From the NCBI GenBank assembly GCA_963719225.1, contig CAVRAY010000001.1:928001-992000 (forward strand): a stretch of 64,000 nt of DNA, in the 5' to 3' direction. The notes under the pieces were generated by a model. That model ran no database searches. It saw only the letters and a list, made by a program, of their open reading frames with translations, and was not told where the DNA came from. How positions within the stretch are numbered: the first letter of the stretch is position 1; the number at the start of each line of letters is the position of its first letter. Shown here in pieces: positions 19,411-46,401 of this stretch. Source of the DNA: Thermoanaerobaculia bacterium (GTDB lineage Bacteria; Acidobacteriota; Thermoanaerobaculia; UBA5066). Position numbers and translations under genes: made by a program.

Positions 19411-20264
19411 TTTCTGGTCCTGTTTCGAGAGGAAGACAAAGACGAAGACGAGGAAGACGAAGAAAAAGACGAGGGTTTCTTAGAAGGCGCGTGACGGGCC
19501 TTCGCATGCCGGCCTCGGCGCGCCGCGCCTGTGGCGGTTGCCCTCTTTACCTTCAAAGAAATTTCTCTTCTTTTCTTTCTCCTTCTCTCTTTCTCATTTT
19601 CCCTTTCTTTCTGCGCGGCAGCGACACCGACCTTCGGACACAAGTCCGCGAGCGTGCAGCGCTCGCACTGCGGGCGGCGCGCCGTGCAGATGCGCCGGCC
19701 GTGCTGGATGAGCGCGTGGCTGATCCAGGTCCAGCGGCCTTTCGGGATGATCCGGTTGAGGTCGCGCTCGGCCTTCACGGCGTCCGTCTCCCGCGTCCAG
19801 CCGAGGCGACGTGCGACGCGTCCGACGTGCGTGTCCACGACGACGCCGTCCGGCGTGCCCCAGACGTTCCCGAGGACGACGTTCGCCGTCTTGCGCCCGA
19901 CGCCCGGCAACGCGTGCAGGGACTTCATCGTGTTCGGGACCTCGCCGCCGTGCTCGGAGAGGAGGGCCCTCGCGATGCCACGCAGGGATTTCGCCTTCGC
20001 GTTGAAAAAACCGGTCGAGCGGATGATCTCCTCGAGCGCTCCCGGAGGAGAACCGGCCAGAGCGGCGACGTCCGGGTAGCGCCGGAAGAGCTCGGGCGTG
20101 ACCATGTTCACGCGCACGTCGGTGCACTGGGCCGAGAGGACGGTCGCGACGAGGAGCTCGAGCGGGCTCCGGAAATCGAGCGAGCACGCGGCGTCGCCGT
20201 ACAGGTGCTCGAGGCGGACGAGCGTCGCGCGGACGGGCGCAGCCGGAGATTTCCCAGAAGGCAT
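19407..20264 (-). CDS. nth: Endonuclease III with low-complexity C-terminal extension
   Basis: '[16 protein letters not shown]', HhH '[13 protein letters not shown]', 'VDTHV', FeS '[18 protein letters not shown]'; stop overlaps the tdk start (ATGA). Confidence 0.95.
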
Positions 20265-20296
20265 GAGGGCGGAGAATATGCTAAGAATCGCGGGTC

Positions 20297-21979
20297 TTGA
20301 GGACTCGCGCCCGCCTTCTTCGATTCCTCCCGAGCGCAATTCTCGGAGTCCTCCTTTCGTCTGCTGTTCCCGCGGCGCGCGCGGAAAACCTGGTGGTGAC
20401 GATCCTCGAAACGACGGATCTCCACGGGCGCCTGCTGCCCTGGGATTACCAGCGCGCCCAGGCCGCGGACGAAGGACTCGCCCGCGTCGCCTCGCGCATC
20501 GCCGCGATCCGCAGGGAGACGCCGAACGTGCTCCTCCTCGACGCGGGCGACACGATCCAGGGAACGCCGATCGAGTTCCTGCACGCGAAGGATCCCTCGA
20601 AAGGCCCCGACCCGATGGCCGAGGCGATGAGCGTCCTCGAGTACGACGCGATGGCCGTCGGGAACCACGAGTTCAACTTCGGGCTCGCCGTCCTGCGCAA
20701 GGCGCAGAAGGAGTCCTCGTTCCCGTGGCTCTCCGCGAACACGCGCAACGTCTCGGACGGCTCGGCCGCGTTTCCGGAATACCTCGTGAAGACGGTTGCG
20801 GGGATCCGGATCGGTGTCCTGGGCCTGACGACGCCGAACATTCCGAACTGGGAGCCCGTGCGCAACCGCCCCGGCCTGCGCTGGGAGGACCCGGTCGACA
20901 CGGCGAAACGCCTCGTGCCGGTTCTTCGCGGGAAGGAGCGTTGCGACTTCGTCGTCGCGCTGATTCACAGCGGCCCCGAGGTCGACCTGAAGACCGGCGT
21001 TCCCGACGGCACGGACGACGAGAACCGCGTCGTGGCGCTCTCGAAGGTGCCGGGGATCGATCTCCTTCTCACGGGACACACGCACCGCCGCATCCCGCTC
21101 ACGAGGCTCAACGGCGTCCCGATGATCCAGCCGGGGCGCTGGGGCGACGTCCTCGCGCGCGTGGACGTCACGTTCGAGACGTCCGGCGGGAAGGTGACCG
21201 TGGCGGACGTCTCGGGCGCGCTCCTTCCCTCGGACGCCTCCGTCGCGACGGACCCTGGCGTCGCCGCGATCGCGGCTCCCCACGACGCCGCGGCGCGCGC
21301 CTACATGGACGAGCAGATCGCGGTCGCCGACGAGGACTTCCCGGGTGCGCGCGCCCGGCTCGAGGACACGGCCCTCCTCGACTTCGTGAACGACACGATG
21401 CGGGAGGCCACCGGGGCGGACCTCTCGATGACGTCGCTCCTGCCGGGCCGGTTCGAGGGCTTCAAGAAGGGTCCGATCAAGGTCCGCAACGTCTACACGC
21501 TCTATCCGTACGAGAACGCCCTCGTCGCGATCGAGATCGACGGGGCGACGCTGAAGGCCTGCCTCGAGCACGCCGCCGAGTTCTACGGCAGCGCGGAGTG
21601 GGAGGATGGCCGGCTCGTGCTGAAGCCGAAGGAGAGGATGATCCCGTACAACTTCGACGTCGTTCAGGGCGCGACGTATCGCATCGACCCGACGGCTCCC
21701 GTGGGCTCGCGCGTGAAGGACCTCGCGTACCGCGGGCGCCCCGTGCTGCCCGCGGACCGTTTCACGCTCGCCGTGAACGCCTACCGCGCCCAGGGTTCCG
21801 GCGGCTACAAGGCGCTCAAGGGTGCGAAGGTCGTCAAGGAAATCAAGGACGAGATCCGCGAGCTCCTCATCGAGCGGCTCCGCAAGCTCGGCCACGTGAG
21901 GCCGCAGGCGGATCACAACTGGATCGTCGCGCCCGACGCCGTCTGGGCGCCGGAAGCGCCCCGACCTCGCACGAATTGA
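20297..21979 (+). CDS. Periplasmic 2',3'-cyclic-nucleotide 2'-phosphodiesterase / 5'-nucleotidase family
   Basis: 'TTDLHG', 'DAGDTIQG', 'GNHEFNFG', 'GHTH', 5'-nucleotidase C-domain 'LYPYEN', 'AVNAYRAQGSGGY'; signal peptide. Confidence 0.9.
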   Translation: MRTRARLLRFLPSAILGVLLSSAVPAARAENLVVTILETTDLHGRLLPWDYQRAQAADEGLARVASRIAAIRRETPNVLLLDAGDTIQGTPIEFLHAKDPSKGPDPMAEAMSVLEYDAMAVGNHEFNFGLAVLRKAQKESSFPWLSANTRNVSDGSAAFPEYLVKTVAGIRIGVLGLTTPNIPNWEPVRNRPGLRWEDPVDTAKRLVPVLRGKERCDFVVALIHSGPEVDLKTGVPDGTDDENRVVALSKVPGIDLLLTGHTHRRIPLTRLNGVPMIQPGRWGDVLARVDVTFETSGGKVTVADVSGALLPSDASVATDPGVAAIAAPHDAAARAYMDEQIAVADEDFPGARARLEDTALLDFVNDTMREATGADLSMTSLLPGRFEGFKKGPIKVRNVYTLYPYENALVAIEIDGATLKACLEHAAEFYGSAEWEDGRLVLKPKERMIPYNFDVVQGATYRIDPTAPVGSRVKDLAYRGRPVLPADRFTLAVNAYRAQGSGGYKALKGAKVVKEIKDEIRELLIERLRKLGHVRPQADHNWIVAPDAVWAPEAPRPRTN

Positions 21980-21992
21980 GCCCGGCTCTTCG

Positions 21993-22805
21993 TCAATTCG
22001 ACGGGGAGAGGTCCCAGGCGCGGATCAGGTTGAATCCGATTTTCACGTTCCGGTCCGTGACGCCGCCGCTGTAGTCGCCGCCGACGTACTGGTCCACGGT
22101 CGAGGCCTGCGAGTTTCCCATCCACAGGGCGAACCTGTGGTTGAAGACCTGCTTCTCGATCGCGACGGACCACTGCCCGACCGAGTCGGGCACGACGTTC
22201 TTCGTCGGGACGTACTCTCCGATGAGCGCGATCGACTTCGTGATCTTGAGCTGCAGGATGAGCGGCACGTTGAAGACGTCCTTCTGGAACTGCGTGTTCT
22301 GCGCGTAGCTCGGCGCCGCCGCGAGCGTGACGCGGTTGGCGATCGTGTAGGAGACGAGGACCTGCCCGAAAAAGCTCGTCTCCTTCGGAGCGTAAGCGGC
22401 GGTCCGCCAGTCGAGACCCGCGCGCGCGCCGACGGCCAGGGGAAGAGAGGCGTTGGGCCTGAGGAGCGTTCCCTTCAGGGCGAATTCGTAATCCGCGTAG
22501 TTGTTCACGCGATAGACCTGCACCGCGAGGTTCGGAATGAAGACGTAGTCCACGCCGATGCCGATCGCAGCCCCGCTGTCGAGACCCCAGAGGCTGCTCC
22601 CGCCGGCATCCTTCACGGCCTGGTTGAAGCGGTGCGTGAAGACGGCCTCGAACTTCCCCCGTTCGTTCGTGAGCGGAGTGGACGTCTGCGAGAACCGGTT
22701 GCCCAGGGTGGTCGTCACGCCTTCGTCGCCGCGGCCCTCCCCGGCGCCGAGCACGAAGGCGGAGACGACGGCAACGAGGGCGACCGTCCGGATCGCCTTG
22801 CGCAT
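21993..22805 (-). CDS. DUF5777-like outer-membrane beta-barrel protein
   Basis: Signal peptide; 'FTHRF...LWGLDSGA', 'HRFALWMGNS', 'IGFNLIRAW'. Confidence 0.65.
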   Translation of the reverse strand: MRKAIRTVALVAVVSAFVLGAGEGRGDEGVTTTLGNRFSQTSTPLTNERGKFEAVFTHRFNQAVKDAGGSSLWGLDSGAAIGIGVDYVFIPNLAVQVYRVNNYADYEFALKGTLLRPNASLPLAVGARAGLDWRTAAYAPKETSFFGQVLVSYTIANRVTLAAAPSYAQNTQFQKDVFNVPLILQLKITKSIALIGEYVPTKNVVPDSVGQWSVAIEKQVFNHRFALWMGNSQASTVDQYVGGDYSGGVTDRNVKIGFNLIRAWDLSPSN

Positions 22806-22821
22806 GAAACCCTCCTCGCGC

Positions 22822-25383
22822 CTATTTCGGGATGACGAGCGGCTGGATCACGTCGGTGTCGCGGGACCTGAGGTCCTGCCTCACGAGGACCGCGAGGAAC
22901 GGCCCGGTGCCGTCGGCGGGAACGACGTCGAGGCGCCCGAGGTCCGTTTTCGCGCCGGCCAACCAGCCCGGAAGCGAGACGGCGCCCGACGGCGGCACCG
23001 TGACCGTGCGGCTGCCGACGGCGGTGCCGTCCGCGCCGGTGAATTTCACCGTGACGTCGCCCGGGTTCGCCGACGTCGACGTGAGGTGGAGCGTCGAGGA
23101 AAAGTCGTCGTTCTGCGTGGCCGAGAGGAACACGCCCCGCGAGCCCGACGGGATCGCGGAGGGAGACGCGGCGAAGGCCGCGCGCGACGTGAAGACGACG
23201 TTTCCCCCGGAGGAAAGCGCGGCGCGGAAGGTGGCGAAGGCCGCTACCGGCTGATCGGCGGCGACGTCGAGCGTCCCCGTGGCTGCCGCGGCGGGACTTC
23301 CCAGGTCGAGCGTGACGACCGCGCCGGGAGGGACGGTCGTCGTCGCGAGCGGGCCGCCCGGCGCGAGAGCGGGTCCGTCGACGGGCTGCGCGACGCGGAA
23401 GGACACGCCGACGTTCGCGGAACCCGTCCCGCTGTTGAAGATCTGGAGCGTCGGCTTGACGCCGCCTCCGCGCGTAAAGCCCGCGATCTGGAGGCTGTTG
23501 GCGAGCGCGGACGCTCCGACAGGGGCGAGGCCCGCGACGTCTCCGCTCCCGCGGTCCACGGCCGAGCCGAACAGCAGAACCCGCCCGGTCGCCACCGTGC
23601 AGACGATGCGCGCGGACGGAAGGGTCGGCAGCGCGAAGGCGTCGAAGATGGACGTGCCCTGGACGTGGTAACCGCTCGGCCAGTCGTACGCGTAGCTCGC
23701 GCGGGAGACGCCGCTCGCGTCGACGATCGAGATCGTGCCCCGCGACGCTTCCGTGACCAGGACGCCCGCGATCGTCTGCTCTCCGACGTCGGAGGACGCG
23801 AAGAGAAAGCCCGTGTCGCCCGCGCCCAGCGCGGCGGTGCCCGCCACGGCGTTCGCGGCGTCGCCCAGGGTTCCGCCTGAGGGAGCGGAAAGGGAGACGC
23901 GCGACCACGCGAACGTGTCGTCGAGGACGTCCGACGTGATCCGAACGCCGCCCTGGACGCCCGCCGAGTCCATGCCCGCGCCGATGACGTCCTGCTGGGA
24001 CACGAGCGTGCCGGCCGGCACCGGCTGCGTCGCGGCGCCCGACAATCCGGCGATCCATCCGTCGGGCAGGATCCGCTGAACGTAGTTCATGACCTTCGTC
24101 ACTCCAGTGGAATCGGGAGTCCCCCGATTCCAGGTGACGATCTGGGTGCGATACGAGCGGGCCGAATCGGAGGAGAAAGGCGCCGCCGATGCGGAGGTGA
24201 GATACAGCTCCTTGTCGTCGACCTTCGGCGGGGGAGAGAGAGCGCCGAAGGCGCCGCTCGTCCCGAAGAAGATCCTGCCGCGCGCCTCGTCGATCAGCAT
24301 GGCCCAGAGCGAGCTGCCGCTGTTCACGAGGATCTGCGCGAGTCCGGGCTGGCCGCTCCCGACGTCGACCACGACGCTCGGAGGCGTCAGATCCTGCTCG
24401 TCGAGCGTGAGAGCGCTCGTCACGGCCGTCGTCGCGAAGGTCGTCCGCGCGACCGGGACGGCGTCCGTGAACGTGAGAGTCGAAGTCGACGACGGCGTGG
24501 ATTTCCCGGGGTCGAGGAACCCCACCTGGCCCGCCTGATCCGAATAGACGACGAGCCCCTTGTAGTTGTGGATGTCGTAGGGGAACGAGCCCGATGGGAG
24601 CGTGAACACGTCCAGGGTGCCGGTCGCATCGTCGAAGCGGCCGAGCTGTCCCGAGGCGTAAAAGGTGATCCAGAGCTTTCCGTCCGCGAGGCGAACGATC
24701 TTCGAGGGCGAAAGAGTCGTCGAGGGCAGCGTCCAGATCCTGGCGGTCGAGACGTCCGGAGCCCAATGGACGACCGACTGGAAGATGAAGTCGAGGGAGA
24801 AGATCGATCCGTCCGGATCCTGCCAGGGGTAGGAGTTGTAGTAGACGCCGGGGGTCGTGTAGTAGATGAAGTTCGGGACCGCGGGATCGAAGACCGCGAG
24901 GAGCCCGCCTGTTTCCGGCAGCCAGAATTTTCCGTCGGGTCTTTTCACGAGCGCCGTGGGCCGGCGCGCGCCGTCGGTGTATTCCGTGACGCTTCCGGTG
25001 GCCGGATCGAAGTGCGCGACCTTGAAGCCGCCGAGCTCCGTGATCCAGAACGTGCCGTCGTCGTCCCTCAGAAGAGAGCTCGGCGCGGCGTCCTTCGCCA
25101 TGATCCAGCGCGAGAGCTTCGTGCGGTCGCCGGACATGCGGGAGATGGCGTTCTCCTCGGCGGAAACGGCCCACACGGATCCGTTCGCTTCCTTCACCAT
25201 GTTGGCGCCGTCGTAAGCCAACGCGCCCGTGAAGGAGTAGAGCTCCGTGCCGGCAGGGACCGGACGCGGCGTCGGCGTGGGTGTGGGGGTCGGCGTCGGC
25301 TCCTGCCCGCGAGCGGGAAGCGTCAGGGCGAAGACGGCGATGAAGAACGGAAGAAGGAGTCCGGGGGAGCGCTTGCGTGTCAC
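22822..25383 (-). CDS. Secreted Vgb (streptogramin-lyase-like) beta-propeller protein with beta-sandwich C-terminal region
   Basis: Signal peptide plus PTPTPT linker; repeats 'DGTFWITE', 'PDGKFW', 'DGKLWIT'; start GTG 25383 (7 nt after TACAAT) or ATG 25392. Confidence 0.65.
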   Translation of the reverse strand: MTRKRSPGLLLPFFIAVFALTLPARGQEPTPTPTPTPTPRPVPAGTELYSFTGALAYDGANMVKEANGSVWAVSAEENAISRMSGDRTKLSRWIMAKDAAPSSLLRDDDGTFWITELGGFKVAHFDPATGSVTEYTDGARRPTALVKRPDGKFWLPETGGLLAVFDPAVPNFIYYTTPGVYYNSYPWQDPDGSIFSLDFIFQSVVHWAPDVSTARIWTLPSTTLSPSKIVRLADGKLWITFYASGQLGRFDDATGTLDVFTLPSGSFPYDIHNYKGLVVYSDQAGQVGFLDPGKSTPSSTSTLTFTDAVPVARTTFATTAVTSALTLDEQDLTPPSVVVDVGSGQPGLAQILVNSGSSLWAMLIDEARGRIFFGTSGAFGALSPPPKVDDKELYLTSASAAPFSSDSARSYRTQIVTWNRGTPDSTGVTKVMNYVQRILPDGWIAGLSGAATQPVPAGTLVSQQDVIGAGMDSAGVQGGVRITSDVLDDTFAWSRVSLSAPSGGTLGDAANAVAGTAALGAGDTGFLFASSDVGEQTIAGVLVTEASRGTISIVDASGVSRASYAYDWPSGYHVQGTSIFDAFALPTLPSARIVCTVATGRVLLFGSAVDRGSGDVAGLAPVGASALANSLQIAGFTRGGGVKPTLQIFNSGTGSANVGVSFRVAQPVDGPALAPGGPLATTTVPPGAVVTLDLGSPAAAATGTLDVAADQPVAAFATFRAALSSGGNVVFTSRAAFAASPSAIPSGSRGVFLSATQNDDFSSTLHLTSTSANPGDVTVKFTGADGTAVGSRTVTVPPSGAVSLPGWLAGAKTDLGRLDVVPADGTGPFLAVLVRQDLRSRDTDVIQPLVIPK

Positions 25384-25450
25384 GTCGGGCATTGTAGCGG
25401 CCCGAGATGCACGCTCCGTTCCGCTTCCCACGTCGTGAAAAGTGGCCGGT

Positions 25451-25480
25451 TTGACGCGCCGGAGACGCTTGGCGTAGGAT
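25451..25480 (+). promoter_or_regulatory. Sigma70-type promoter for rho
   Basis: TTGACG-N18-TAGGAT, about 220 nt upstream of the rho start. Confidence 0.6.
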
Positions 25481-25701: not shown

Positions 25702-27165
25702 TTGAGCGAGATGGACCCGAAGGATCGAGTCCTCACGGCACCCGGCGACTCGCAAAGGGGCGACGTCGACGTTCCGGATGGGGAGTTCGAGGCCGATTCC
25801 GCCGGCCCGGAGACCGAAGAGGGCTCAGAGGCCGCGGAATCGAACGAGGGCGGCGACGCGCAGCCTGCCGCCGAAGGCGAGGGCCAGAACGCGTTCGACC
25901 CCTACAGGCGGCGGAGACGCCGGCGCCGTCGGCGCGGCCGCGGACGCGGTCCCGGTCCGGCAGTCGCGGGCGACGGAAGCGGCACGCTCTCGCCGGAGGG
26001 CGTCTCCCCCGAGGCCCGGGGCCGTTACGCCCCGCGCATGGAGCCAGCCGCCGTCGCGAACGCGCCCCGCACGGCGATCAAGGGAATCGTGAAGCTTCAC
26101 GGGGACCACTCCGGCACGCTCGTCTCGTCGACGACCTATTTTCCCGAGCGCGGAGACCCGTTTCTTCCGAAGTTCCTCGTGGAATCCGAGGACCTCGAGG
26201 ACGGCCTTCTCGTCGAGGCCGAGGCCGTCTCGCGCGGCCCGAAGGGCCCGATCGTCCAGAAAGTGATCTCGATCGAAGGACTCGAGCCGGCGGACTATCG
26301 CGGCAAGTACATCCAGTTCCACAAGGGCGTGTCGGTCGACCCCGACCGGCGCCTCCGGATGGAAACCGCGGCGGACGAGATCTCCGGCCGCGTCCTGGAT
26401 CTCGTGGCGCCGATCGGACGAGGCCAGCGCTGCCTGATCGTCGCGCCTCCGAAGGCGGGCAAGACGTTCCTCCTGAAAACGATGGCGAACGCCATCGCGA
26501 AGAACGACCCCGACGTGAAGATCTTCATGCTCCTCGTGGACGAGCGTCCCGAGGAGGTCACCGACATGCAGCGGTCGATCACGGGGGAGGTGGTCGCCTC
26601 GCCGAGCGACCTCAACGCGGCGCATCACATCGCCGTTTCGGAGGCGTGCTTCGAGCGGGCCAAACGCCTCGTCGAGATCGGCCACGACGCCGTCATCTTC
26701 TGCGACTCGATCACGCGCATGAGCCGCGCCTACAACAACGAGCAGCGCGGAAGCGGCCGCATTCTCTCGGGTGGAATCGACGCCCGGACGATGGAGAAGC
26801 CGCGCCGCTTCTTCGGCGGCGCGCGGAATCACGAGGGCGGCGGCTCTCTCACGATCATCGCGACGTGTCTCATCGACACGGGAAGCAGGATGGACGACGT
26901 CATCTTCGAGGAATTCAAGGGCACCGGCAACAGCGAGATCATCCTCGACCGCGGCCTCTTCGAGCGCCGCATCTTCCCCTGCATCAACATCCCTGCTTCC
27001 GGCACCCGCAAGGAGGAGAAGCTCTACGACGCGGACGAGCTCCCGAAGATCCACAAGCTCCGCCGGGCGCTTTCTTCGGTGAAGCCACAGGACGCGATGG
27101 AGCTCCTGCTCTCTAAGCTCGGAAAGACGAAGACGAACAAGGAGTTCCTGAAGAGTATTCTTTAG
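25702..27165 (+). CDS. rho: Transcription termination factor Rho with atypical N-terminus
   Basis: '[23 protein letters not shown]', '[13 protein letters not shown]', '[11 protein letters not shown]', '[11 protein letters not shown]', 'SGTRKEE'; TTG start after GGAGG (the ORF track start at 24568 is spurious). Confidence 0.95.
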
Positions 27166-27169
27166 CCTT

Positions 27170-27967: not shown

Positions 27968-27975
27968 CGGCGGGC

Positions 27976-29607
27976 TCAGGCCGGCGCGGCCGCTTCGATG
28001 CGGCCGGCGACTCGGCGTCCGCGACGACGCCTCCGGCGCTTCGGGGGCGCCGTCGAAGACGGAAGTGGAGGCTCCGGGGGCTCCGCGCCGAACCCTCCCG
28101 GCGGCAGGTCGAGCCGAAATGCCTCACGCGTCCAGAAGTCCACAGCGAGGAGGGAGATGGGAGATTCGGAAGAAGATTCTTCGAATGGAGAGACGGAAGA
28201 AGAGATGGAGGAACGGAAGGAAACGGGGATTTCTTTGAAGGTGGGTGGGGCTACCGCGGCAGGCTCGTGCGCCGAGATGGGCGTCAGCTGGGACTCCGGT
28301 CTCAGCGCGCGCGGTGTCGCCTCCTGCGAAGCCGCCACCGGAGCTTCCGGAGCCTCCCTCTTCACCTTCGAAGAAATCTTCGGCGCCGGAGGCGCCGTCT
28401 TCTCTTCCCGTGACGCCGCAGGCGCCGCGAAGAGCGCGTTGTCCGCGAACTCCACGGGGATCTTCATTCCGATGAGGCGCTGGATCGCGTCGAGCGAGAA
28501 CACGTAGTCTTCGTCGGCGAGGGAGATCGCCTTGCCCGACTGGCCGGCGCGGGCCGTCCGTCCGATCCGGTGAACGTAGTCCTCGGGGTCCTGGGGAAGG
28601 TCCACGTTGATGACGTGTGTAACGCCGTCGATGTGGAGCCCCCGCGACGCGACGTCCGTGGCGACGAGCAGCGGCAGCACACCGCTCTTGAAGTCCTGGA
28701 GGATCTTCAGGCGCCGTGGCTGCGGAATGTCTCCCGTGAGCGCGCCGATGCGGAATCCGTGCCTCTCGAGGTTCGTGACGAGGCGCTCGGCGAAGCGCTT
28801 CGTGTTCACGAAGAGCATCGTGCGCTCGACGCCCTCGCGTCTCAGAAGGCCCAGCAGCAGCGGAATCTTCTCGCGCTGCGAGACGTGGTAGAGCACCTGG
28901 GTGACGCGGTCGGCGGTGATCTGCTCGGGCCGGATCTCGATCTTCTTCGCGTCGTGCATGTGCTCGTACGCGAGCTCCATCACGCGGAGAGAAAGCGTCG
29001 CGGAGAAGAGCATGGAGTGCCGCCGGCCGGGCGGCGGGCAGCGCCGGAGAATGCGCCTGAGGTCCTTGATGAAGCCGAGGTCGAACAGGCGGTCGGCCTC
29101 GTCGATGACGAGCGACTCGACCTCGCCGAAGGACGTCGCGCCCTGTTGTTCGTAGTCGAGGAGGCGACCGGGCGTTCCGATGAGGAGATCGCAGCCGGCC
29201 CGAAGCTGGTCGCGCTGGCGGCCGTAATCGATGCCGCCGAAGACGGTCACGATGCGCATCTTCACGAAATGCCCGAGGGCGCGCGCGTCTTCCTGGATCT
29301 GCACGGCCAGCTCGCGTGTCGGCGCGACGATGAGCGCCCGCGGGTTCGGGGAGCCCTTGTGGCGCTTCGCCCGGATGAAACGGGTGAAAATCGCCACGAG
29401 GTACGCGGCCGTTTTTCCCGTGCCCGTCTGTGCCTGGGCGGCGACGTCCTGACCCGCGAGGAGAAGGGGAAGCGTCGCGGCTTGAATGGGAGTCGCCCGT
29501 ACGAATCCGCATCCCGCGATCCCCGCGCTCACGGCGTGCGGGAGCTTCAGGTCGGCGAAGTAGACGTCGGAAAGGTGATCGGAAAATTTCCCCGCAGGAG
29601 CGGTCAT
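27976..29607 (-). CDS. rhlB: DEAD-box RNA helicase, RhlB-like
   Basis: 'AQTGTGKT', 'PTRELA', 'DEADRLFDLGFIKDLRRILRR' (RhlB-like), 'FSAT', 'HRIGRTAR'; low-complexity C-terminal tail. Confidence 0.8.
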   Translation of the reverse strand: MTAPAGKFSDHLSDVYFADLKLPHAVSAGIAGCGFVRATPIQAATLPLLLAGQDVAAQAQTGTGKTAAYLVAIFTRFIRAKRHKGSPNPRALIVAPTRELAVQIQEDARALGHFVKMRIVTVFGGIDYGRQRDQLRAGCDLLIGTPGRLLDYEQQGATSFGEVESLVIDEADRLFDLGFIKDLRRILRRCPPPGRRHSMLFSATLSLRVMELAYEHMHDAKKIEIRPEQITADRVTQVLYHVSQREKIPLLLGLLRREGVERTMLFVNTKRFAERLVTNLERHGFRIGALTGDIPQPRRLKILQDFKSGVLPLLVATDVASRGLHIDGVTHVINVDLPQDPEDYVHRIGRTARAGQSGKAISLADEDYVFSLDAIQRLIGMKIPVEFADNALFAAPAASREEKTAPPAPKISSKVKREAPEAPVAASQEATPRALRPESQLTPISAHEPAAVAPPTFKEIPVSFRSSISSSVSPFEESSSESPISLLAVDFWTREAFRLDLPPGGFGAEPPEPPLPSSTAPPKRRRRRRGRRVAGRIEAAAPA

Positions 29608-29680
29608 CCGAGTTCATTGTAGCGTCCCGAACCGTTCCCGTCGCCTCCGATATACTGGACCGACGCGCGCCTCTCCTTCC

Positions 29681-34343: not shown

Positions 34344-34349
34344 CCCCGC

Positions 34350-35483: not shown

Positions 35484-35487
35484 CCCC

Positions 35488-37320
35488 TCACGCCGGGCCG
35501 GTCGAGTCCACGATCCTCAGAAGGTCCTTTTCGGGATCGAGCGCGATGCCGGCGACGAACTTCTTCGAAGGGTTCGGAATCGTGACGATGGTCGTCGGCG
35601 TGGCGCCGTCCAGGTTCACGGTCACGTCGGACGTCGTCCCGTCGACGTACGTGATCCGCACGGGGAGCGGGATGACGTAGAAGGGCTTGTCGCCCGGGCC
35701 TGCGACGGGATGGACGACCGTGTGGCCCTGCGCCTGCGTGACCGCCAGCGCCACCGACGAGGCGTCGAGCGCGGTGTGGAACGTGGCGCTGAGCACGGGC
35801 CGGAACGGCGTCTCGACCCACTGGTCGAAGAACTGCTTGAGGTCGAGGCCGCTGGCCTTTTCGAAGTCGGCGCGCAAGTCGGCGCGCGACGCCGTGCCCC
35901 ACGCGTGCGCGTCGCCGTACGCGCGAAGCGCCGGGAAGAACGTGGCGTCGCCCACGAGCCGGCGCAGCATGTGCAGGGCGCGCGCCCCCTTGTAGTAGAC
36001 GGCGCCCGTGTTCGCGAAGGGTCGCGCCGGGTCGGCCACGACGGTCGGCGCGAGCCGGCCGCCGTAGAGGTTGTCGTCGTAGGACGTCGACAGCGTGGCC
36101 CCGGGCGCGAAGCCGAGCGCCTTCTCGAGGTACAGGACTTCGCCGTACGTCGCGAACCCTTCGTTCAGCCAGATGTCGTCCCAGGTCCGCATCGTCACGC
36201 GGTCGCCCCACCAGTCGTGCGAGAGCTCGTGGACGAGGAGGGTCGTGATGTCCCGCGCGGTGTTCGCGAGGATGCTCGTGCCGATCGACGTCAGCGTCGG
36301 GTGCTCCATGCCGCCCGAGAAGGACGAGGCGACGATGCCGTACTTCGTGTCGAGAAACGGGTACTCGCCGAACATGGAGGCCAGCGTCGCCATATGGCTC
36401 TTGATCGCGGAGAGCCGGGAGACGTTCTCGGCGGCGTACTCCGGCAGGAGGTACGAGCGAATCGGCATCATCCGGCCGTCGAGCGCCGTGTACGTGTCCT
36501 CGACGGTCACGTAGTTCGCGACGTTGAGCGAGACGAGGTACGTCGAGATCGCTTGCGGCAGCTTCCAGGTGTACGTGTTCCGGCCACCGCCCGCGCTGGC
36601 GACGGAGACCACGCCCGCGGAAGCCGCGACGTACCCCGCCGGAACCGTCGCATGAACGGTCACGACGGCCTTGTCCTTCGGGTCGTCCACGCACGGCCAG
36701 AACGTGCGCGCGAGAAACGGCTCGGCGACGCTCGTCGCGGAATAGCCCGTGTCGTGCTGCCAGAAATCGAGGGCGGCCGCACCGGGAGGTTGTCCGCCGT
36801 AAGAGATCGAGATCGTCGTGCGCTCCTCGGAGCCCAGCGGCGGATCGAACGGAATCAAGAGCTTGCCCGAGGCGTGAACGGCCGGGACCGCATTGCCGTC
36901 GCGCGACGTCGCCGTCACGAAGTACGCGTCATCGAGGTCCAGGGCGAGGGAAGAGGTCCGGCGCGCGAAGCCGGCCACGCGGATCACGGTCTTCCCCGCG
37001 AGGAACCGCACGGCGGGGTCGATGTCGAACGAGACGTCGTAGGAGAGAACGTCGACGCCGCGTTCCACGCCCTCGACGGAAGGAGGCACGATGCCGGCCG
37101 CGGCGCGGGCGGCGGCTGCGGCCTGGAAGCGCGCCCGCTTGGCCGCGGCCTCGACGTGCTCGCGGAGCGGGCCGCGGTCGATGTCGAGGGAGGGAAAAGA
37201 AAGAGAGGATGCTGTGAAAGAAAGAAAGAAGAGGAGGAGGACGGCAAGAGCGCCCGCGCCAAGGCCGTGTGCCGCGTTCCGGCCACTGCGGGGCCGCCCC
37301 CCTCTTCCTCTTCTAAGCAT
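35488..37320 (-). CDS. Secreted M1-family zinc aminopeptidase
   Basis: 'GGMEH', 'HELSHDWWGDRVT..W..IWLNEGFATY', 'YYKGARALHMLR'; start uncertain. Confidence 0.9.
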   Translation of the reverse strand: MLRRGRGGRPRSGRNAAHGLGAGALAVLLLFFLSFTASSLSFPSLDIDRGPLREHVEAAAKRARFQAAAAARAAAGIVPPSVEGVERGVDVLSYDVSFDIDPAVRFLAGKTVIRVAGFARRTSSLALDLDDAYFVTATSRDGNAVPAVHASGKLLIPFDPPLGSEERTTISISYGGQPPGAAALDFWQHDTGYSATSVAEPFLARTFWPCVDDPKDKAVVTVHATVPAGYVAASAGVVSVASAGGGRNTYTWKLPQAISTYLVSLNVANYVTVEDTYTALDGRMMPIRSYLLPEYAAENVSRLSAIKSHMATLASMFGEYPFLDTKYGIVASSFSGGMEHPTLTSIGTSILANTARDITTLLVHELSHDWWGDRVTMRTWDDIWLNEGFATYGEVLYLEKALGFAPGATLSTSYDDNLYGGRLAPTVVADPARPFANTGAVYYKGARALHMLRRLVGDATFFPALRAYGDAHAWGTASRADLRADFEKASGLDLKQFFDQWVETPFRPVLSATFHTALDASSVALAVTQAQGHTVVHPVAGPGDKPFYVIPLPVRITYVDGTTSDVTVNLDGATPTTIVTIPNPSKKFVAGIALDPEKDLLRIVDSTGPA

Positions 37321-37355
37321 CTTCGGTTCTTTCCCCGGTGCCCGTCCTCGTAATC

Positions 37356-38825
37356 CTACGCGAGAGATTTTCCGATGGCCTCACCGCTCGCGATGCGTTC
37401 GCCGAGTGCGATGCCGTCGCGAAACCCCCCGGTGACGCGCAGCGCGCCGGGAGCCACCGCGTCGAGCGCCGCGAGATCCTCCTCGAGCGCTGCAAGCGTG
37501 CGGTGGTGGCCGAGCGGAAGCTGCGGGATCGCCTCCGGCCAGCGCGCGATCCACGAGCGCGCGGCCGGGCCGAGGCGCGGAAAGAAACGCGCGACCTCCG
37601 CGGACGCGACGGCAAGGAGGTCCGCGTCGGGAGCGCCCGCGAGTTCCCGGTCGAGGGCCCCGCCGAGAAACGATGTCGTGAGGACGAAGCCTTCCGGCGC
37701 CCTCCCCGTGAAGAGCGAAGCCGGATAGAGGATGCCGAGAGAGCGGAATCCTTCCACCTGCGGGATGAGCCCGCCGAAACCCTTCGGGGCGTCGCCCGGC
37801 GACGCCGGCGCGCGGTAGGCCTGCATCACCACGGTGACGGGCGAGGACGGCACGAGAGCGAGGGCGGCGGATGAGCGCGTCAGGATGCCGTCGAAGAGCC
37901 GCGCGTCGGCGGGAGCCGAAAGTGTCGACACGAGGACGTCGGCGTCGAAGCCGCGCCCGTCGGCCGTGCGCACGGTCCAGCGGCGCCCAGGCGGGGAGGG
38001 GATGCGCGGCCCTTCGATCTCGACGACGGCCGCGTTCAGCTCCAATTGGAAGCCGGGTCGCTCCCTCAGGCGGCTTTGAAGTGTTTCTATGAGGGTATAA
38101 AGGCCGCCCTCGAAAGTCAGGGTTCGCGCGCGATGGCGCGCGGGGGTTCTTGACGCGCTTCCGGTCGTTGCAACCGCAACATCATCCGCCGCGGCGCCCC
38201 CCGGTGCGCCGCCCTTGCCCTCTATCCCTCTAAGAAAATCTTTCTTCTTCCTCTTTCTAAGAAGCCCCCTTATGACGCTTCCCGCTGCTCCCTCCGCCTC
38301 CCAGAGCCTCGGGAACGCAGATCGCATCGAAAGCGAGCGCGGATCCCCCGCGTAGACGCCGGAAACCATCGGCCCCGCGCCGTAGAGGGCCGCCTCTTCG
38401 CCGAAGCGCCGCGCGAAGAAGGAGTGGACGCTCTCGTCCTCCAGGGACGCCGGGCGGGGCGGAACGAAGGGCTCCTTGAGGAGGCGCAGCTTGCCTTTCA
38501 GCGTGAAGACTCTGTTGAAGAGCGCTGCGGGGCCGGGCACAACGGCGCGAGGCGAGCCGCCGCGCACGATCCAGCGCGGAGCCTTGCCGTCCGCCTTGAC
38601 GGTCCGGGGCTCGAGGCCGAGGCCGGCGAGGAGGCGCTCGGCCGCCTCGGTCGTGCGGAGAGTGTTCGGCCCGCACTCGAGCGTGAACCCGTCCTCGCGG
38701 ATCGTCCGGATCGAGCCGCCCGGCCGCGGACCCGCCTCGAGGATGACGGTTTCGCCGGGGCCCGTGCGCCGGAACGCGACCGAGAGTCCGGCGATTCCTC
38801 CTCCGAGGATCACGACGCGCGTCAC
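37356..38825 (-). CDS. hemY: Protoporphyrinogen/coproporphyrinogen oxidase (HemY type, FAD)
   Basis: GTG start overlaps the hemH stop; 'VVILGGGIAGL', 'ECGPN', 'SGVYAGDP..LS', 'WPEAIPQ'; contains an in-frame insertion near 38130-38280. Confidence 0.88.
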   Translation of the reverse strand: MTRVVILGGGIAGLSVAFRRTGPGETVILEAGPRPGGSIRTIREDGFTLECGPNTLRTTEAAERLLAGLGLEPRTVKADGKAPRWIVRGGSPRAVVPGPAALFNRVFTLKGKLRLLKEPFVPPRPASLEDESVHSFFARRFGEEAALYGAGPMVSGVYAGDPRSLSMRSAFPRLWEAEGAAGSVIRGLLRKRKKKDFLRGIEGKGGAPGGAAADDVAVATTGSASRTPARHRARTLTFEGGLYTLIETLQSRLRERPGFQLELNAAVVEIEGPRIPSPPGRRWTVRTADGRGFDADVLVSTLSAPADARLFDGILTRSSAALALVPSSPVTVVMQAYRAPASPGDAPKGFGGLIPQVEGFRSLGILYPASLFTGRAPEGFVLTTSFLGGALDRELAGAPDADLLAVASAEVARFFPRLGPAARSWIARWPEAIPQLPLGHHRTLAALEEDLAALDAVAPGALRVTGGFRDGIALGERIASGEAIGKSLA

Positions 38826-41235: not shown

Positions 41236-41308
41236 GCGCGCGAGGTTAGCACCGCCCGCGACGGCGTCTCATCTTGCAATTGCATCAGGCGAGCGAGGCG
41301 AGTGGGTG

Positions 41309-42352: not shown

Positions 42353-42378
42353 CGCGCGGGAGGTTAGCATCGCGCCAT

Positions 42379-42393
42379 GTGACGGTTCGTCAC
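42379..42393. promoter_or_regulatory. Palindromic operator candidate between the divergent hemE and ccsA-hemA promoters
   Basis: GTGACG-gtt-CGTCAC lying between the -10 boxes TAACCT (42361-42366, minus) and TATAAT (42438-42443, plus). Confidence 0.45.
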
Positions 42394-42450
42394 GTCCCTG
42401 ATGCATCCGCACTGACTCGTCGGCGGGCCCGGATTCCTATAATCGTCGCT

Positions 42451-43293
42451 GTGACCGGGGCCGCGCAGATCGCTTCGACTCTGGGATGGGTGGCCCTCGT
42501 CGCATACGCTCTTTCGGCGGTCCTCTACACGACGTCCCTCTTCCGGACGGCCGCGTGGATCGGGCGCTCGGCGACGGCCTTCGCGGTCCTCGGCGCCGTC
42601 TGCAACTTCGGCACGCTCTACGCGCGCTCGCTCGCGCTCCACACCGTGCCGTACCGCGACCTCCTCGGCTCCATGAAGCTGTTCGGCTTCTTCCTGGCCG
42701 TGCTGAACATCGTGCTCGAGCTCCGTCACAAGGACCGCTCGCTTGGGCCCTTCCTCATGCCCGCGGCGCTCGTGTTCCTCCTCCTCGCGGTGGTCCAGAC
42801 GACGCCCGTCCACAAGGACGCGCCGGAGCTGAAGGGCCCGGTCTTCGCGCTCCACGTGACGCTCAACATGCTCGCGTACGCGGCGTTCGCGGTGGCCTGC
42901 GCGCTCTCCCTGCTCTACGTCGTCGTGGGACGCTCGCTCAAGAAGCGCGCCTTGACGGGCGCCGCTTCGCGGCTCCCGAGCCTGTCGTACCTCGAGCGCG
43001 CGAACCGCACGTCGCTTTCCCTCGGCATCCTCGCGCTGGCGGTGGGACTCCTCCTCGGCCTTTTCTGGGCGTCGCGCATGTGGAAAGGGGAGCACCCGCT
43101 CTGGGCGCTCGACCCGAAGATCTGGTTCGCTCTCGCGACGCTCGCGTTCTACGTTTTCGTTCTCGTGCGGGCGCGCCGGGGCGCGGCGCCCGTCTCGACC
43201 GCCCGTCTCTCGATCGCCGGGTTCGTGCTCGTCCTCGTGTCCTACACGGCCGTCAACCTCCTCGTCAGCAAGCTGCACGACTTCACCTCATGA
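42451..43293 (+). CDS. CcsA/HemX-family cytochrome c assembly or heme-handling membrane protein
   Basis: About 8 TM segments, 'FALHV', 'LPSLSYLER', WWD-like 'WASRMW...WALDPK', C-terminal 'LHDF'; GTG start 7 nt after TATAAT. Confidence 0.8.
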   Translation: MTGAAQIASTLGWVALVAYALSAVLYTTSLFRTAAWIGRSATAFAVLGAVCNFGTLYARSLALHTVPYRDLLGSMKLFGFFLAVLNIVLELRHKDRSLGPFLMPAALVFLLLAVVQTTPVHKDAPELKGPVFALHVTLNMLAYAAFAVACALSLLYVVVGRSLKKRALTGAASRLPSLSYLERANRTSLSLGILALAVGLLLGLFWASRMWKGEHPLWALDPKIWFALATLAFYVFVLVRARRGAAPVSTARLSIAGFVLVLVSYTAVNLLVSKLHDFTS

Positions 43294-44561
43294 ACCTGCT
43301 CTTCGTCGGATGGGACCATCGCGCCGCTCCTCTCGATCTGAGAGAGAGACTCGCGTTCACGCCGGAGAAGGCGCGCGAGGCGCTCGCAGGGCTCTTCGAG
43401 GAGCACATCCTGTCCGAGGGCGCGATCGTGTCCACGTGTAACCGCGCGGAGATCTACGGGATGTCCGACCGCGAGGACGGGCTCGACGCGCTCGCGGGAT
43501 TCTTCTCGCGGTTCCACCGCGTGGATGACGCGCTGCTGCGCCGCACGGCGCTCTCGGGCCACGGCGACGCGACGATCAGGCACCTCTTCCGCGTCGCCGC
43601 GGGCCTCGACTCGATGGTCCTGGGCGAGGCGCAGATCCTCGGTCAGATCCGCGAGGCGCACCGCCTCGCGACGGCCGCGGGCACGGTGCGCACCGTGACG
43701 AACCGGCTGTTCATGAGCGCGCTCGAATGCGGCAAGCGCGTGCGCGCCGAGACGGCGCTCGGACAGAAGCCGACGTCCGTCGCGGGTCTCGCGCTCCTCC
43801 TCGCCGGGCGCATCTTCGAGTCTCTCAGGGACCGGAAAGTTCTCCTGATCGGCGCCGGGGAGACGGCCGAGCTCACGGCGCGGCTTCTCGCCGACGCCGG
43901 TGTCTCGGAGGTTCTCGTCGTGAACCGCTCGCACGAAAACGGCGAGGCCCTCGCCGCGGCCATTCACGGCCGTGCGGTGCGGTGGGAAGACCGCGCCCGG
44001 GCGGCGGCTTCCGTCGACCTCGTCCTCTCGGCCACGAACGCGACCGAGCCCGTTCTCACCGAAGGAGCGCTGCGCACCGCGCTCCATGCCACGCCGCGCC
44101 GCGGCCCGCTCCTCGTCCTCGACCTCGCCGTGCCGCGCGACGTCGAGCCCGAGGTCGGCGAGCTCTCCGACGTCTACCGGTACGATCTCGACTCCCTCCA
44201 GGAGATGGCGGACGTGAACGCGCGGGCGCGCTCGGGCGAGGTGCCCCGTGCCGAGGAGATCGTCGAGGAGTGCGTCCGGAGGTTCCAGGAGTGGTGGGGC
44301 GGACTCCTGCAGGGCGACGTCGTGCGCGGCCTGAGGGAGAAGCTCGAGACCATCCGGCGCTCCGAGCTCGAGAAGCACGCCGGAAAGCTCTCCGCGCTGG
44401 ACCCGTCCGCGCGGGCCGCCGTCGAGCGCCTCACGGAAACCCTCGTGGCCCACATCCTCCACGACCCGACGGTCGGCTTGAAGGAAGGGGACGGCTCCGA
44501 TCGCCTCGAGCGCGCCGCGGCCGTGCGCGCGCTTTTCCGCCTCGACGAGAGGCCGAAATGA
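43290..44561 (+). CDS. hemA: Glutamyl-tRNA reductase
   Basis: 'VSTCNRAEIY', 'HLFRVAAGLDSMVLGEAQILGQ', 'IGAGE', 'DLAVPRDVE'; ATGA overlap with the upstream gene. Confidence 0.96.
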   Translation: MNLLFVGWDHRAAPLDLRERLAFTPEKAREALAGLFEEHILSEGAIVSTCNRAEIYGMSDREDGLDALAGFFSRFHRVDDALLRRTALSGHGDATIRHLFRVAAGLDSMVLGEAQILGQIREAHRLATAAGTVRTVTNRLFMSALECGKRVRAETALGQKPTSVAGLALLLAGRIFESLRDRKVLLIGAGETAELTARLLADAGVSEVLVVNRSHENGEALAAAIHGRAVRWEDRARAAASVDLVLSATNATEPVLTEGALRTALHATPRRGPLLVLDLAVPRDVEPEVGELSDVYRYDLDSLQEMADVNARARSGEVPRAEEIVEECVRRFQEWWGGLLQGDVVRGLREKLETIRRSELEKHAGKLSALDPSARAAVERLTETLVAHILHDPTVGLKEGDGSDRLERAAAVRALFRLDERPK

Positions 44562-45628
44562 CCACGGCCACGGCCACGCGGCCGCTTCGGATGGGCACGC
44601 GGGCGAGCGCGCTGGCACGCACGCAGTCGGGCGCCTTCGCGTCCGAGCTGTCGCTCCTTTCGGGGCGCCCCGTCGAGACGGTCGTCATCCGCACCCAGGG
44701 CGACCAGCTCTCGAGCGAGGGCAAGGCTCCGCCCGGCGGCGACGCCGCCGGCGTTTTCGTCCGCGCGCTCGACGAGGCGCTTCTCAGGAACGAGATCGAC
44801 TTCGCGGTCCATTCCCTGAAGGACGTGCCGACGGTCGTCACCGCCGGCATCGTCCTCGCCGCCGTGCCGGAGCGCGCCGACCCGCGCGATGCATTCGTCG
44901 TCGCCTCGCGCCACCGGGGCGTGACGTCGGTGGGAGGGCTTCCGCCCGGGGCGCGCATCGCCACGTCGTCGCCCCGTCGCGTGTCGCAGCTCCTCAGGAT
45001 CCGGCCCGACCTCGTGATGGTCGCGATGGCCGGCAACGTCGACACACGCCTCCAGCGCCTCGAAGAGGGCCGCGCCGACGCGCTGATCCTCGCCTGCGCG
45101 GGTCTCGACCGGCTCGGCAGGGGAGGCGTCATCACGCGCCGGCTCGAGCCGGACGAGATGATCGGCGCGCCGGCGCAAGGTGCGCTCGGAATCAGCTGCC
45201 GGGCGGACGACGAGGAAACGAGGAAGATTTTGCTGAAGATGGAGGACCCCGCCGCACGAGTAACCGCCTCGGTGGAGCGCGACCTTCTGCAATTTCTGAG
45301 AGGGGGATGTCGGGCGCCTGTCGGCGCGCGAGGATTCTTGGAAGGGGAAGAAGGCAGCCGCACGCTGAAGCTCGTGGGCCGCGTTCTGTCGCTCGACGGG
45401 CGCGAATGCCTCGAAGAGGAGCTGAGCGAACCATTCGCGCAGCCGTCTGCGACTGCCACGACCTCTCCCTCTTCCCCTTCTAAGAAATCCCCCTCTTCCT
45501 CTTCTCCTTACGAGCAGTCTTTCTCTTCTTCTTCTTCTACTTCTCTCGGCCGCGTCCTCGCCGAGCGCCTTCTCGCGCGCGGCGCCGCGCGACTCATCGA
45601 CGCAGCGCGCGAGCGGGCTTCGGGGTGA
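44558..45628 (+). CDS. hemC: Hydroxymethylbilane synthase (porphobilinogen deaminase)
   Basis: 'GTRASALARTQ', 'DFAVHSLKDVP', 'TSSPRR', 'GNVDTRL', 'GGCRAPVG'; Ser-rich insertion near the C-terminus. Confidence 0.95.
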   Translation: MTTATATRPLRMGTRASALARTQSGAFASELSLLSGRPVETVVIRTQGDQLSSEGKAPPGGDAAGVFVRALDEALLRNEIDFAVHSLKDVPTVVTAGIVLAAVPERADPRDAFVVASRHRGVTSVGGLPPGARIATSSPRRVSQLLRIRPDLVMVAMAGNVDTRLQRLEEGRADALILACAGLDRLGRGGVITRRLEPDEMIGAPAQGALGISCRADDEETRKILLKMEDPAARVTASVERDLLQFLRGGCRAPVGARGFLEGEEGSRTLKLVGRVLSLDGRECLEEELSEPFAQPSATATTSPSSPSKKSPSSSSPYEQSFSSSSSTSLGRVLAERLLARGAARLIDAARERASG

Positions 45629-46401
45629 GCGGCAGGATCCTCCTACTTCGCTCCGGTTCCGCCGGATCCGAAGACGCCCAGGCCTCGGACGTGACCGTCC
45701 TCTATACCCATACCGTCGTGCCGCGTCCCGAGGGCATCGCGGAGGCGCTCGCGTTCGACGCGCGTGGTGCGACGCTCGTGATCTCCTCGAAGGAGGCCGT
45801 CAACTATCTGCTCCCTCTCTTCCGTGCTCCCTTCGCGCAGATGCTGGCGGTCGGGAAAGGCACCGGGGAATTGCTTAGAAGGGTGAATACGGGCGGCCCT
45901 CTCGGCGGCACTTCCGGCGAAGCATCAACCTACAGTGGGGCTTCGGACACGCAGATCGTCGTTCCGGAAATTCCCGGAGCCGCAGGTGTCATTCACTTCC
46001 TCAGAAACTCTTCCGTGCCCTCCCTCATGCGCATCCTCTGGCCGCACGGCTCCGACGCGGCGCCTGAGCCGCTGGAGCAGGTCCGCGCGCTCGGCATCCG
46101 GCTCGTCGCTCCCGTCGTCTACGAAAAACGTCCTCTCTCTTCCGCCGAGCTGAATCCTTCGATCCTGTCGGATTTTCGAGCCGGCCGGTTCGGGGCCGTC
46201 GCCGTGGGCTCGACGGCGGGCCTCGACGTCCTGCTCGCCGCCCTGGCTCTCAAGCCCGCGCCGCTTTCGAAAGTAAGATGGGGCGCTCTCGGGCCCGAGA
46301 CCGCGAAAGCCGTCACGGCTCGGGGGCTCCCGACGCCCGGGATTCCCGCGCACGCGCGCGTCGCCGAACTCCTGGACCTCCTGCGGAAGGAAACACGATG
46401 A
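45625..46401 (+). CDS. hemD: Uroporphyrinogen-III synthase (divergent)
   Basis: Position between hemC and hemB; 'SSKEAV', 'AVGKGT', 'VVYE', 'GST', 'ALGPETAKAV'. Confidence 0.75.
   Translation: MSGRILLLRSGSAGSEDAQASDVTVLYTHTVVPRPEGIAEALAFDARGATLVISSKEAVNYLLPLFRAPFAQMLAVGKGTGELLRRVNTGGPLGGTSGEASTYSGASDTQIVVPEIPGAAGVIHFLRNSSVPSLMRILWPHGSDAAPEPLEQVRALGIRLVAPVVYEKRPLSSAELNPSILSDFRAGRFGAVAVGSTAGLDVLLAALALKPAPLSKVRWGALGPETAKAVTARGLPTPGIPAHARVAELLDLLRKETR

Follow-up and report, generated by a model that had tools for sequence, protein, structure and literature searches.

Few chromosome-wide DNA signals are known in bacteria. The subject here is a dispersed DNA word, arranged in back-to-back pairs, in a stretch of 64,000 nucleotides (G000:C1:928001-992000, referred to as the window) from the genome (4.75 Mb, 68% G+C) of an uncultured member of the Acidobacteriota. 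Several described systems offer points of comparison. The uptake signal sequences (USS) of Pasteurellaceae and the DNA uptake sequences (DUS) of Neisseriaceae are polar words with a core and lower-information flanks, lying over coding DNA in poorly conserved protein regions (PMC2817400, PMC3458573, PMC3630211), and the inverted pairs of DUS are intergenic terminator stem-loops (PMC3630211). The matS site is a palindrome and a signature word of the terminus region (PMC8669397). In REPINs, a word of 20-40 bp occurs as an inverted doublet with a spacer in between; such doublets are commoner than chance and form extragenic hairpins with a REP-associated tyrosine transposase (RAYT; PMC3116915). Rickettsia palindromic elements (RPEs) are in-frame inserts of ~150 bp that encode a conserved peptide in unrelated metabolic genes (PMC10969869). 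HRM of Lactococcus lactis is an unexplained dispersed motif that is missing from phage and transposon genes (PMC2526093).

The word described here resembles USS and DUS in that hundreds of polar copies, each with a core and lower-information flanks, occur in several frames, in the coding and non-coding DNA of one clade and in weakly conserved parts of proteins, with none in lineage-specific genes. Unlike DUS, about 70% of its sites are paired back-to-back 66-250 bp apart, mostly inside one gene; unlike both uptake sequences, it is enriched around the terminus and flanks dif, it differs in sequence and phylum, and its role in uptake is putative. Signature words of the terminus region also characterize MatP/matS in enterobacteria and XerD-mediated SMC unloading in Bacillus subtilis. 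However, matS is present in tens of copies, whereas the word is polar, paired, present in ~820 copies and extends into the origin half, and XerD is ordinary and family-wide here. Over-represented inverted doublets (263 vs. 86 expected) are shared with REPINs, but 72% of the sites are coding, the spacer is host DNA, the arms are not hairpins and a Y1 transposase is lacking. Occurrence in frame in unrelated metabolic genes recalls RPEs and MITEs (transposable elements of the miniature inverted-repeat kind), from which the word differs in that its copies have just their two ends in common, it uses every one of the six frames and it is written over conserved codons of the host. HRM, compared through a citing description only, is similar as an unexplained dispersed motif and belongs to a different lineage. 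In contrast to polar signals of the KOPS/AIMS type, the orientation does not follow the replichore. None of the compared families fits, and the word departs from a defining property of each of USS/DUS, matS, REPIN and RPE/MITE; its geometry, with polar sites, back-to-back pairs, a free spacer and a terminus-centred distribution, is found in none of them. No description of the motif was found in the literature, with subscription papers and supplements outside the coverage, nor was any chromosome-wide DNA signal found there for Acidobacteriota.

A polar word in back-to-back pairs

The signal is a polar word of ~35 bp, the core of which, CCTTCNAAGAAA, is embedded in pyrimidine flanks. Its footprint extends from about -14 to +20 around a variable centre base, and the pyrimidines stand on the same strand on both sides, giving the word its polarity. 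A 24-column weight matrix detects about 822-826 sites in the genome, compared with ~91 in a reversed-sequence control, so that ~11% of the matches at the threshold are expected by chance. CCTTCTAAGAAA occurs in 128 copies against 0.16 expected under an order-4 Markov model, and CCTTCNAAGAAA in 238 copies across the whole genome. The original prediction had proposed a cryptic element embedded in frame in housekeeping genes of the window: all nine sequences that it quoted lie at the positions and on the strands that it gave, and its gene names hold (nth, an RhlB-like helicase, an M1 aminopeptidase-like protein, protoporphyrinogen oxidase, hemC and hemD). It did not notice that the pair is the unit, nor the gradient towards the terminus or the phylogenetic scrambling near the sites. 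The C/T tract of up to ~90 nt that it described is correct only in part, since longer tracts exist but are interrupted, the longest unbroken C/T run in the window being 34 nt.

Gene calls were made with our own predictor (3998 genes, 89.6% coding), and coding status is therefore approximate. The exact 12-mer family has 166 occurrences in predicted coding DNA, in comparison with 0-12 in five rounds of synonymous shuffling within genes, which leaves each protein unchanged, and 1-4 in shuffles drawn with genome codon usage, placing the motif above codon-based expectation as had been supposed. The idea of an intragenic element applies to most of the sites, with 592 of 822 (72%) inside predicted genes and in all six frames, but not to the 205 (25%) that are intergenic.

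The motif is present in 29/29 genomes of one genus of uncultured Acidobacteriota and in part of one sister genus. The exact 12-mer is found in all 28 other genomes of the genus (21-210 copies each), which rules out an assembly artefact, and once among 32 other genomes of the order, a set that includes the unpublished genome G037, on which no conclusion rests. The pair pattern occurs in 19/19 sampled genus genomes besides G000 and in G183 of the sister genus, and in 0/380 others of a 401-genome class sample. Copies with a looser core number 29 in G183 and one each in G101 and G345 of the sister genus, where a hemC or hemD pair is kept in G418 and G419 and neither is kept in G420. Horizontal import into G183 was considered and rejected, as the sites sit in native genes ~70% identical to those of G000, including the hemC and hemD pairs. 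Among the matches listed from a species-level genome collection (80 of at least 118), all are titled Acidobacteriota or Thermoanaerobaculia, and the pair pattern was found in none of the viral contigs searched, nor was any RNA listed as holding it. One 320-kb region contains no site in 34 lineage-specific genes (39 kb), compared with 44 in 142 core genes (163 kb; 27 per 100 kb).

The back-to-back pair is the unit of the signal. There are 292 neighbours in minus-then-plus order, 263 of them no more than 300 bp apart, whereas only 10 of the 292 in plus-then-minus order are that close; permutation of the strands gave 86 back-to-back pairs on average and at most 112 in 500 trials. Close neighbours number 345 vs. 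42 under random placement, and 571 of the 822 sites (~70%) belong to back-to-back pairs; in 171 of the 263 pairs, one gene contains both arms. Spacing is mostly 66-250 bp with a mode at 73-76, and only 17 of the 263 pairs fall under 66 bp. Exact-pattern loci of other genomes, surveyed over a restricted range of 62-92 bp, are spaced 73-76 bp in 58 of 118 cases, or 25 of 59 once orthologues are merged. Surveys of 400 kb in each of four relatives yielded 12, 29, 49 and 33 back-to-back pairs compared with 0, 0, 3 and 3 facing pairs. Back-to-back copies had been reported for nth and rhlB and are indeed present there, but they are not peculiar to those two genes, as all six patches of the window are pairs; tandem extra arms, as in rhlB, recur in relatives. 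Outside certain arms, at a distance of ~15-25 bp, stands another recurring word, which has ~16 bases and includes a GTAG stretch (for example at C1:406514, 781293, 1749697, 1910390 and 3757474); an AGCAARA-like word often follows 40-60 bp beyond it. A kinase paralogue array at G000:C1 ~2295000-2320000 carries a pair in the catalytic domain of each member, at a constant spacing of 91 bp, and the same pair is present in G183.

Constraint, local scrambling and chromosomal position

Host DNA makes up the spacers. Of the 246 that are at least 60 bp long, only 63 matched anything else, nearly all of these matches being short or in paralogous genes, and the spacers encode host domains, such as those of the kinase paralogues. 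Target-site duplications were not found (shared 8-mers 0.038 vs. 0.052 shuffled), although old duplications could have decayed, and the Y1 (RAYT) transposase family PF01797 has no match in G000, which is 97% complete. In hemY, hemD and hemC, the arms overwrite alignable codons and the insertions lie beside the arms. HemD is ~19 residues longer between its arms than in the sister genus, in which hemD has the same right arm and a different left arm 122 bp away. The nth pair lies within a tail of 76 residues, compared with 5-22 residues at this place in other families; in a survey of 20 of the 21 nth loci of the genus, the pair is present in nine, one arm in six and none in five, with the 73-bp spacing in seven.

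Constraint acts at the nucleic-acid level, as had been anticipated: all six frames are used, and A/T-ending synonymous codons occupy 62% of the core positions vs. 12% elsewhere. These codons are retained at 76% (n=72) and 86% (n=114) of core positions relative to G003 and G017, both ~86% identical to G000, against 29-35% far away. G017 still has both arms at 22 of 29 pairs and G003 at 7 of 17, and spacer length varies freely. In coding DNA, 299 sites are sense and 293 antisense; C and T show no G.U (wobble) asymmetry (443 vs. 448), and partner arms are no more alike over the footprint than shuffled partners (0.514 vs. 0.511). The lack of sense bias, wobble asymmetry and arm-to-arm covariation over the footprint points to double-stranded DNA as the form in which the word is read. 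The signal is strong enough to reshape the core enzymes Nth, HemC, HemD, HemY and RhlB, and where it lies, mosaicism between species has local hotspots.

DNA within ~150 bp of the sites is an indel hotspot and is phylogenetically scrambled. Gap density is 0.02-0.15 per base within 60 bp of a site vs. 0.001-0.007 beyond 300 bp, a difference of about ten-fold or more. Quartets drawn across two subclades from 128 genes, 27 of which have sites, and analysed with the footprints masked, showed a fraction of incongruent informative sites of 0.43 within 60 bp vs. 0.18 far away. After matching for local variability and codon position, the excess is 2.44-fold within 60 bp (gene bootstrap 1.85-2.99) and fades to 1.61 at 60-150 bp and 1.15 at 150-300 bp. 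Synonymous sites alone give 0.50 vs. 0.34, and paired and single sites behave alike. Runs of one incongruent pattern occur in 15/112 near windows vs. 31/2569 far windows, and in 16% of 31 near windows vs. 1.8% of 541 far ones, some pair of genomes from different clades is closer than every pair from the same clade. A separate 16-gene test of 10 genomes, with only five near windows, gave 0.42 vs. 0.29-0.35. Across 21 genomes, window and background distances are correlated at 0.43-0.90 in hemA and hemB, but the correlation drops to 0.05-0.30 at the pairs of hemC and hemD. Independent metagenome contigs with flanks 94-96% identical carry different letters from arm to arm in hemD and hemY, and an arm-less hemC patch is common to G010, G013 and G015, across subclades. 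The substitution spectrum near sites is shifted towards transitions, and the ABAB/ABBA imbalance per gene is weakly overdispersed (p=0.07).

A bias relative to origin and terminus had been suggested as worth examining, and sites are 2.6-fold denser around dif. G000 carries dnaA and parS on C2 near 326-334 kb and a dif-like site at C1:2,037,568 near the GC-skew maximum; the region within 1.25 Mb of dif (53% of the genome) contains 610 of 822 sites and 189 of 263 pairs (2.3-fold denser). The most terminus-enriched 8-mers are words of the motif (214 vs. 70). The excess holds in three of four classes of G+C content at third codon positions (GC3) and is reversed in the smallest, highest-GC3 class. 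On contig C4 of G028, 52 of 84 matches lie in a 1.5-Mb region around dif (p=1.3e-4). A site stands at most 263 bp from dif in 22 of 26 genus genomes, often at -79 to -86 or +91 to +93, against a background of 6-13% of 520-bp windows containing a site in four relatives; seven motif-poor genomes have no site flanking dif. In G000, dif is bracketed by two pairs, and among 94 comparable intergenic gaps only that of dif contains four sites. The two strands are about equally represented along C1, and unpaired sites are leading in 105 and lagging in 83 cases. Separate from the motif, G-rich octamers such as CGGGGGAG are strongly biased to the leading strand on both replichores of G000:C1 (242 vs. 73) and are KOPS-like.

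The neighbourhood of dif has further features of its own. A second parA-parB operon adjoins dif (L149:9865-11524, equivalent to G000:C1:2037865-2039524), for which no description was found in the literature. The end of the gene for this terminus ParB paralogue lies ~50-520 bp from dif in 29 of 30 loci checked, and its recognition segment is unlike the one in the ParB of the origin. A palindrome, CC(T/G)AA-N5-T(T/A)(A/C)GG, at G000:C1:2037611 (L149:9611), ~35 bp from dif, recurs family-wide, including in genera without the motif; its strict form is unique in G000, and it is a candidate site for the terminus ParB.

Docking, transfer and other explanations

The pairs may be docking sites for a sequence-specific protein acting on the terminus half of the chromosome, a reading to which we assign a probability of roughly 0.45. 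One protein unit would bind each arm on double-stranded DNA, and two oppositely oriented units would clamp a short U-turn of DNA or form a two-sided barrier or unloading site, so that the long stretches between pairs would be bracketed by facing sites. The spacing floor of ~66 bp would be steric. The bound complex might stall or nick replication and repair locally, which would yield tandem duplications of arms, growth of C/T tracts and short interspecies patches. Back-to-back arms recall oriented CTCF sites and two-site restriction enzymes. Docking is placed first because it accounts for the terminus gradient and the flanking of dif and can give the halo of scrambling via local stalling; the arm-less hemC patches across subclades are also compatible with a recipient-side hotspot. 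Among the four candidates offered by the original prediction, a nucleoid or segregation-type site is the best supported, owing to the terminus enrichment and dif flanking. If the pairs are a terminus organiser, they point to a new chromosome-handling protein.

Several findings weigh against docking at the terminus. The ~820 enzyme-altering sites resemble uptake sequences more than a few tens of matS sites. The enrichment is a broad plateau with no sharp domain, and a quarter of the sites lie in the origin half, with 212/822 at more than 1.25 Mb from dif. G019 is ambiguous: a mere 730 kb separates its dnaA from dif, and density remains high up to dnaA (among 100 listed of 121 matches). The sites flanking dif are partly inherited among kin, so the 22 genomes are not independent, and the -42 site of G183 and G418 overlaps the family-wide palindrome near dif. 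No helical periodicity of 10-11.5 bp was found beyond the 73-76 peak in four spacing sets, the lowest value (p=0.04, de-duplicated set) being driven by that single peak. The centre base matches between partners slightly more often than expected (0.438 vs. 0.382, p=0.022), at one of 10 positions or blocks tested. Finally, none of six candidate readers tracks the motif. Regarding G019, dif and dnaA stand ~730 kb apart on one contig (C2 107800 and 838400), which reflects an inversion or a mis-join.

The candidate readers were drawn from several protein types. The ParB paralogue beside dif is present in 59/61 genomes of the order, and its recognition segment in G183 is the same as in motif-less genomes. 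XerD is ordinary and occurs in 55/60 genomes, a 164-aa AT-hook protein in 53/60 family genomes and ComEC in 54/60, all three including motif-less genera. A MerR-TPR protein (27/60; 1367 family matches overall) and Ku (32/60) are both missing from motif-bearing G183 and present in motif-less G033. Pfam scans covered ~150 proteins of G000 or orthologues, a small part of ~4000 genes. As the sister genus has both motif-bearing and motif-poor species, the reader is findable by comparative genomics. The 164-aa basic protein (L334:6048-6539, minus strand) has two similar N-terminal repeats, no Pfam family and an RGRP-type motif, which we take to be an AT-hook; it is possibly a nucleoid-associated protein. 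Ku followed by the MerR-like/TPR protein (G000:C1:1890656-1892400, minus strand) is found in 25/26 genus genomes and is rare in the rest of the family sample. G000 has six tyrosine recombinases, two of which resemble XerC/XerD and the others of which lie in mobile-looking contexts.

Docking is compatible with, and does not exclude, a role of the pair as a DNA uptake or transfer signal. In this reading, fragments with the pair would be preferentially taken up, protected or integrated, and the word would spread through core genes by molecular drive, dragging short patches from species to species; the receptor, having two-fold symmetry, would bend the DNA between the arms into a U-turn. We regard this as possible but somewhat doubtful, and it owes its standing to better explaining hundreds of copies that invade enzymes. 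The incongruence halo, the collapse of the hemC and hemD trees and the arm-to-arm replaced letters in metagenome contigs agree with it, but the tracts of ~150-300 bp are short, the 16-gene test had few near windows, and the weak overdispersion together with the increase of transitions near sites implies that recurrent mutation may account for part of the signal. Under drive, alleles with arms should be more mobile than those without, and the corresponding test was flat, with genomes that both have the arm being closer in 9 of 14 polymorphic sites (p=0.81). The lineage-specific genes surveyed are free of sites, as reported for USS and DUS (PMC2817400). ComEC (in 24/26 sampled genus genomes, a sample without G000) and, in G000, ComM, pilins and secretin would provide uptake machinery, but the presence of ComEC does not track the motif, and the terminus enrichment and dif flanking are left unexplained. 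Held just as tentatively is the idea that the pair could be a genome-wide exchange signal, with arms bound by a lineage-specific protein, a few hundred bases swapped between species 14-22% apart, and self-spreading through essential enzymes, the loops and tails of which would be rewritten time and again, while marking the terminus half. If the word drives transfer, uptake-type drive would have arisen independently once more, in a new architecture. A further, unlikely possibility is that a host nuclease or recombinase requiring two inverse sites recognizes the pair and cuts or nicks nearby, generating programmed recombination hotspots. The strict orientation rule and distance floor resemble two-site restriction enzymes, gap density is high within 60 bp and Ku is nearly universal in the genus; however, self-cutting should erode the sites, yet the cores are conserved, the tyrosine recombinases of G000 offer only XerC/XerD-like enzymes and those in mobile-looking contexts, and no strand-change joints were seen in the metagenome comparisons, which were of contigs only.

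The remaining explanations, among them the RPE-like repeats, rut-like sites and triplex-prone DNA of the original prediction, fared poorly. Decayed miniature mobile elements of the RPE, MITE or REPIN type, inserted in frame, would account for inverted doublets around a spacer and for arms that often lie in genus-specific insertions (nth tail, hemC and hemY), but host-derived spacers, the lack of target duplications and of a Y1 transposase, arms that overwrite conserved codons and the 72% of sites in coding DNA largely refute this reading. It is also very improbable that the signal acts in RNA, be it through the rut sites of Rho or through long-range stems, or by forming triplex DNA. The pyrimidine-rich flanks and the Rho of the window, which lacks a Pfam RNA-binding domain, would suit this reading, and the pairing of true partners exceeds that of shuffled ones by 0.4-0.5 kcal/mol (a value reached by 6 and 1 of 60 shuffles); on the other hand, sense and antisense sites are balanced, wobble asymmetry is absent, and neither an Rfam match nor a terminator-like site was found at four pairs scanned. 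Triplex-prone DNA is not supported, there being no mirror-repeat excess: pyrimidine mirror arms measure 4.79 nt vs. 4.62 nt in shuffles, and arms of at least 10 nt occur in 5/655 sites vs. 2 in shuffles. Neither RNA nor triplex DNA gives a reason for the terminus enrichment.

Sites of the window and accompanying features

The six pairs of the window are described with their weight-matrix scores in parentheses. The nth pair, with a spacing of 73 bp, has a minus-strand arm in the C-terminal tail at 19462..19496 (centre 19482; 19.8), encoding PSKK, and a plus-strand partner at 19541..19575 (centre 19555; 35.0), which reads ISLKVK on the sense strand. The rhlB pair, spaced 134 bp, consists of a minus-strand arm in the C-terminal region at 28216..28250 (PTFKEI; centre 28236; 27.6) and a plus-strand partner at 28356..28390 (ISSKVK; centre 28370; 35.6), for which an arm of the same orientation is present in 9/9 relatives; the extra tandem arm lies at 28162..28196 on the minus strand (centre 28182; 24.4). 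A weak minus-strand arm in the signal-peptide region of the M1 peptidase (37195..37229, centre 37215; 17.6) is spaced 99 bp from a plus-strand partner overlapping the start of the gene (MLRR; 37300..37334, centre 37314; 23.9). This pair is also found in G017 and G008 and in none of six genomes of the other subclade. Near the C-terminus of the same peptidase, a weak unpaired minus-strand site at 35546..35580 (centre 35566; 18.5) is absent in nine relatives and may be due to chance.

For the heme biosynthesis genes, the patch boundaries of the original prediction were too narrow in two cases, as the partner arms at 38090 in hemY and 45340 in hemC fall outside them. The hemY pair (141 bp) comprises a minus-strand arm over the conserved codons LYTLIETL (38070..38104, centre 38090; 20.1) and a plus-strand partner in a loop insertion (38217..38251, centre 38231; 29.0), followed by a tandem outer arm on the plus strand (GLLRK/GFLRK; 38244..38278, centre 38258; 25.9) that is present in 9/9 relatives. 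In hemC, the minus-strand arm encoding GFLEGEEG (45320..45354, centre 45340; 27.0) is the one replaced by the arm-less patch of G010, G013 and G015; its plus-strand partner lies in a Ser-rich insertion (PSKKS; 45467..45501, centre 45481; 34.5), at a spacing of 141 bp in the window and 111-152 bp across relatives. The hemD pair is formed by a minus-strand arm (GELLRRVN; 45857..45891, centre 45877; 25.7) and a plus-strand partner over the conserved codons VIHFLRN (45987..46021, centre 46001; 20.0), with a spacing of 124 bp here and in most of the genus. The right hemD arm is common to G183, G418 and G419 of the sister genus.

The window contains a multi-heme cytochrome cluster downstream of its heme biosynthesis genes (51890-60530, plus strand), with OmcA/MtrC-type decaheme, DmsE-like and NrfH-like proteins. 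The Rho-like ATPase (25711-27165, plus strand) has 484 aa, and Pfam finds only its ATPase domain. Outside the window, long G/T low-complexity and homopolymer runs at G000:C1 ~55000-61500, which are probably an assembly artefact, are the cause of an excess of poly-A and poly-G words in G000.

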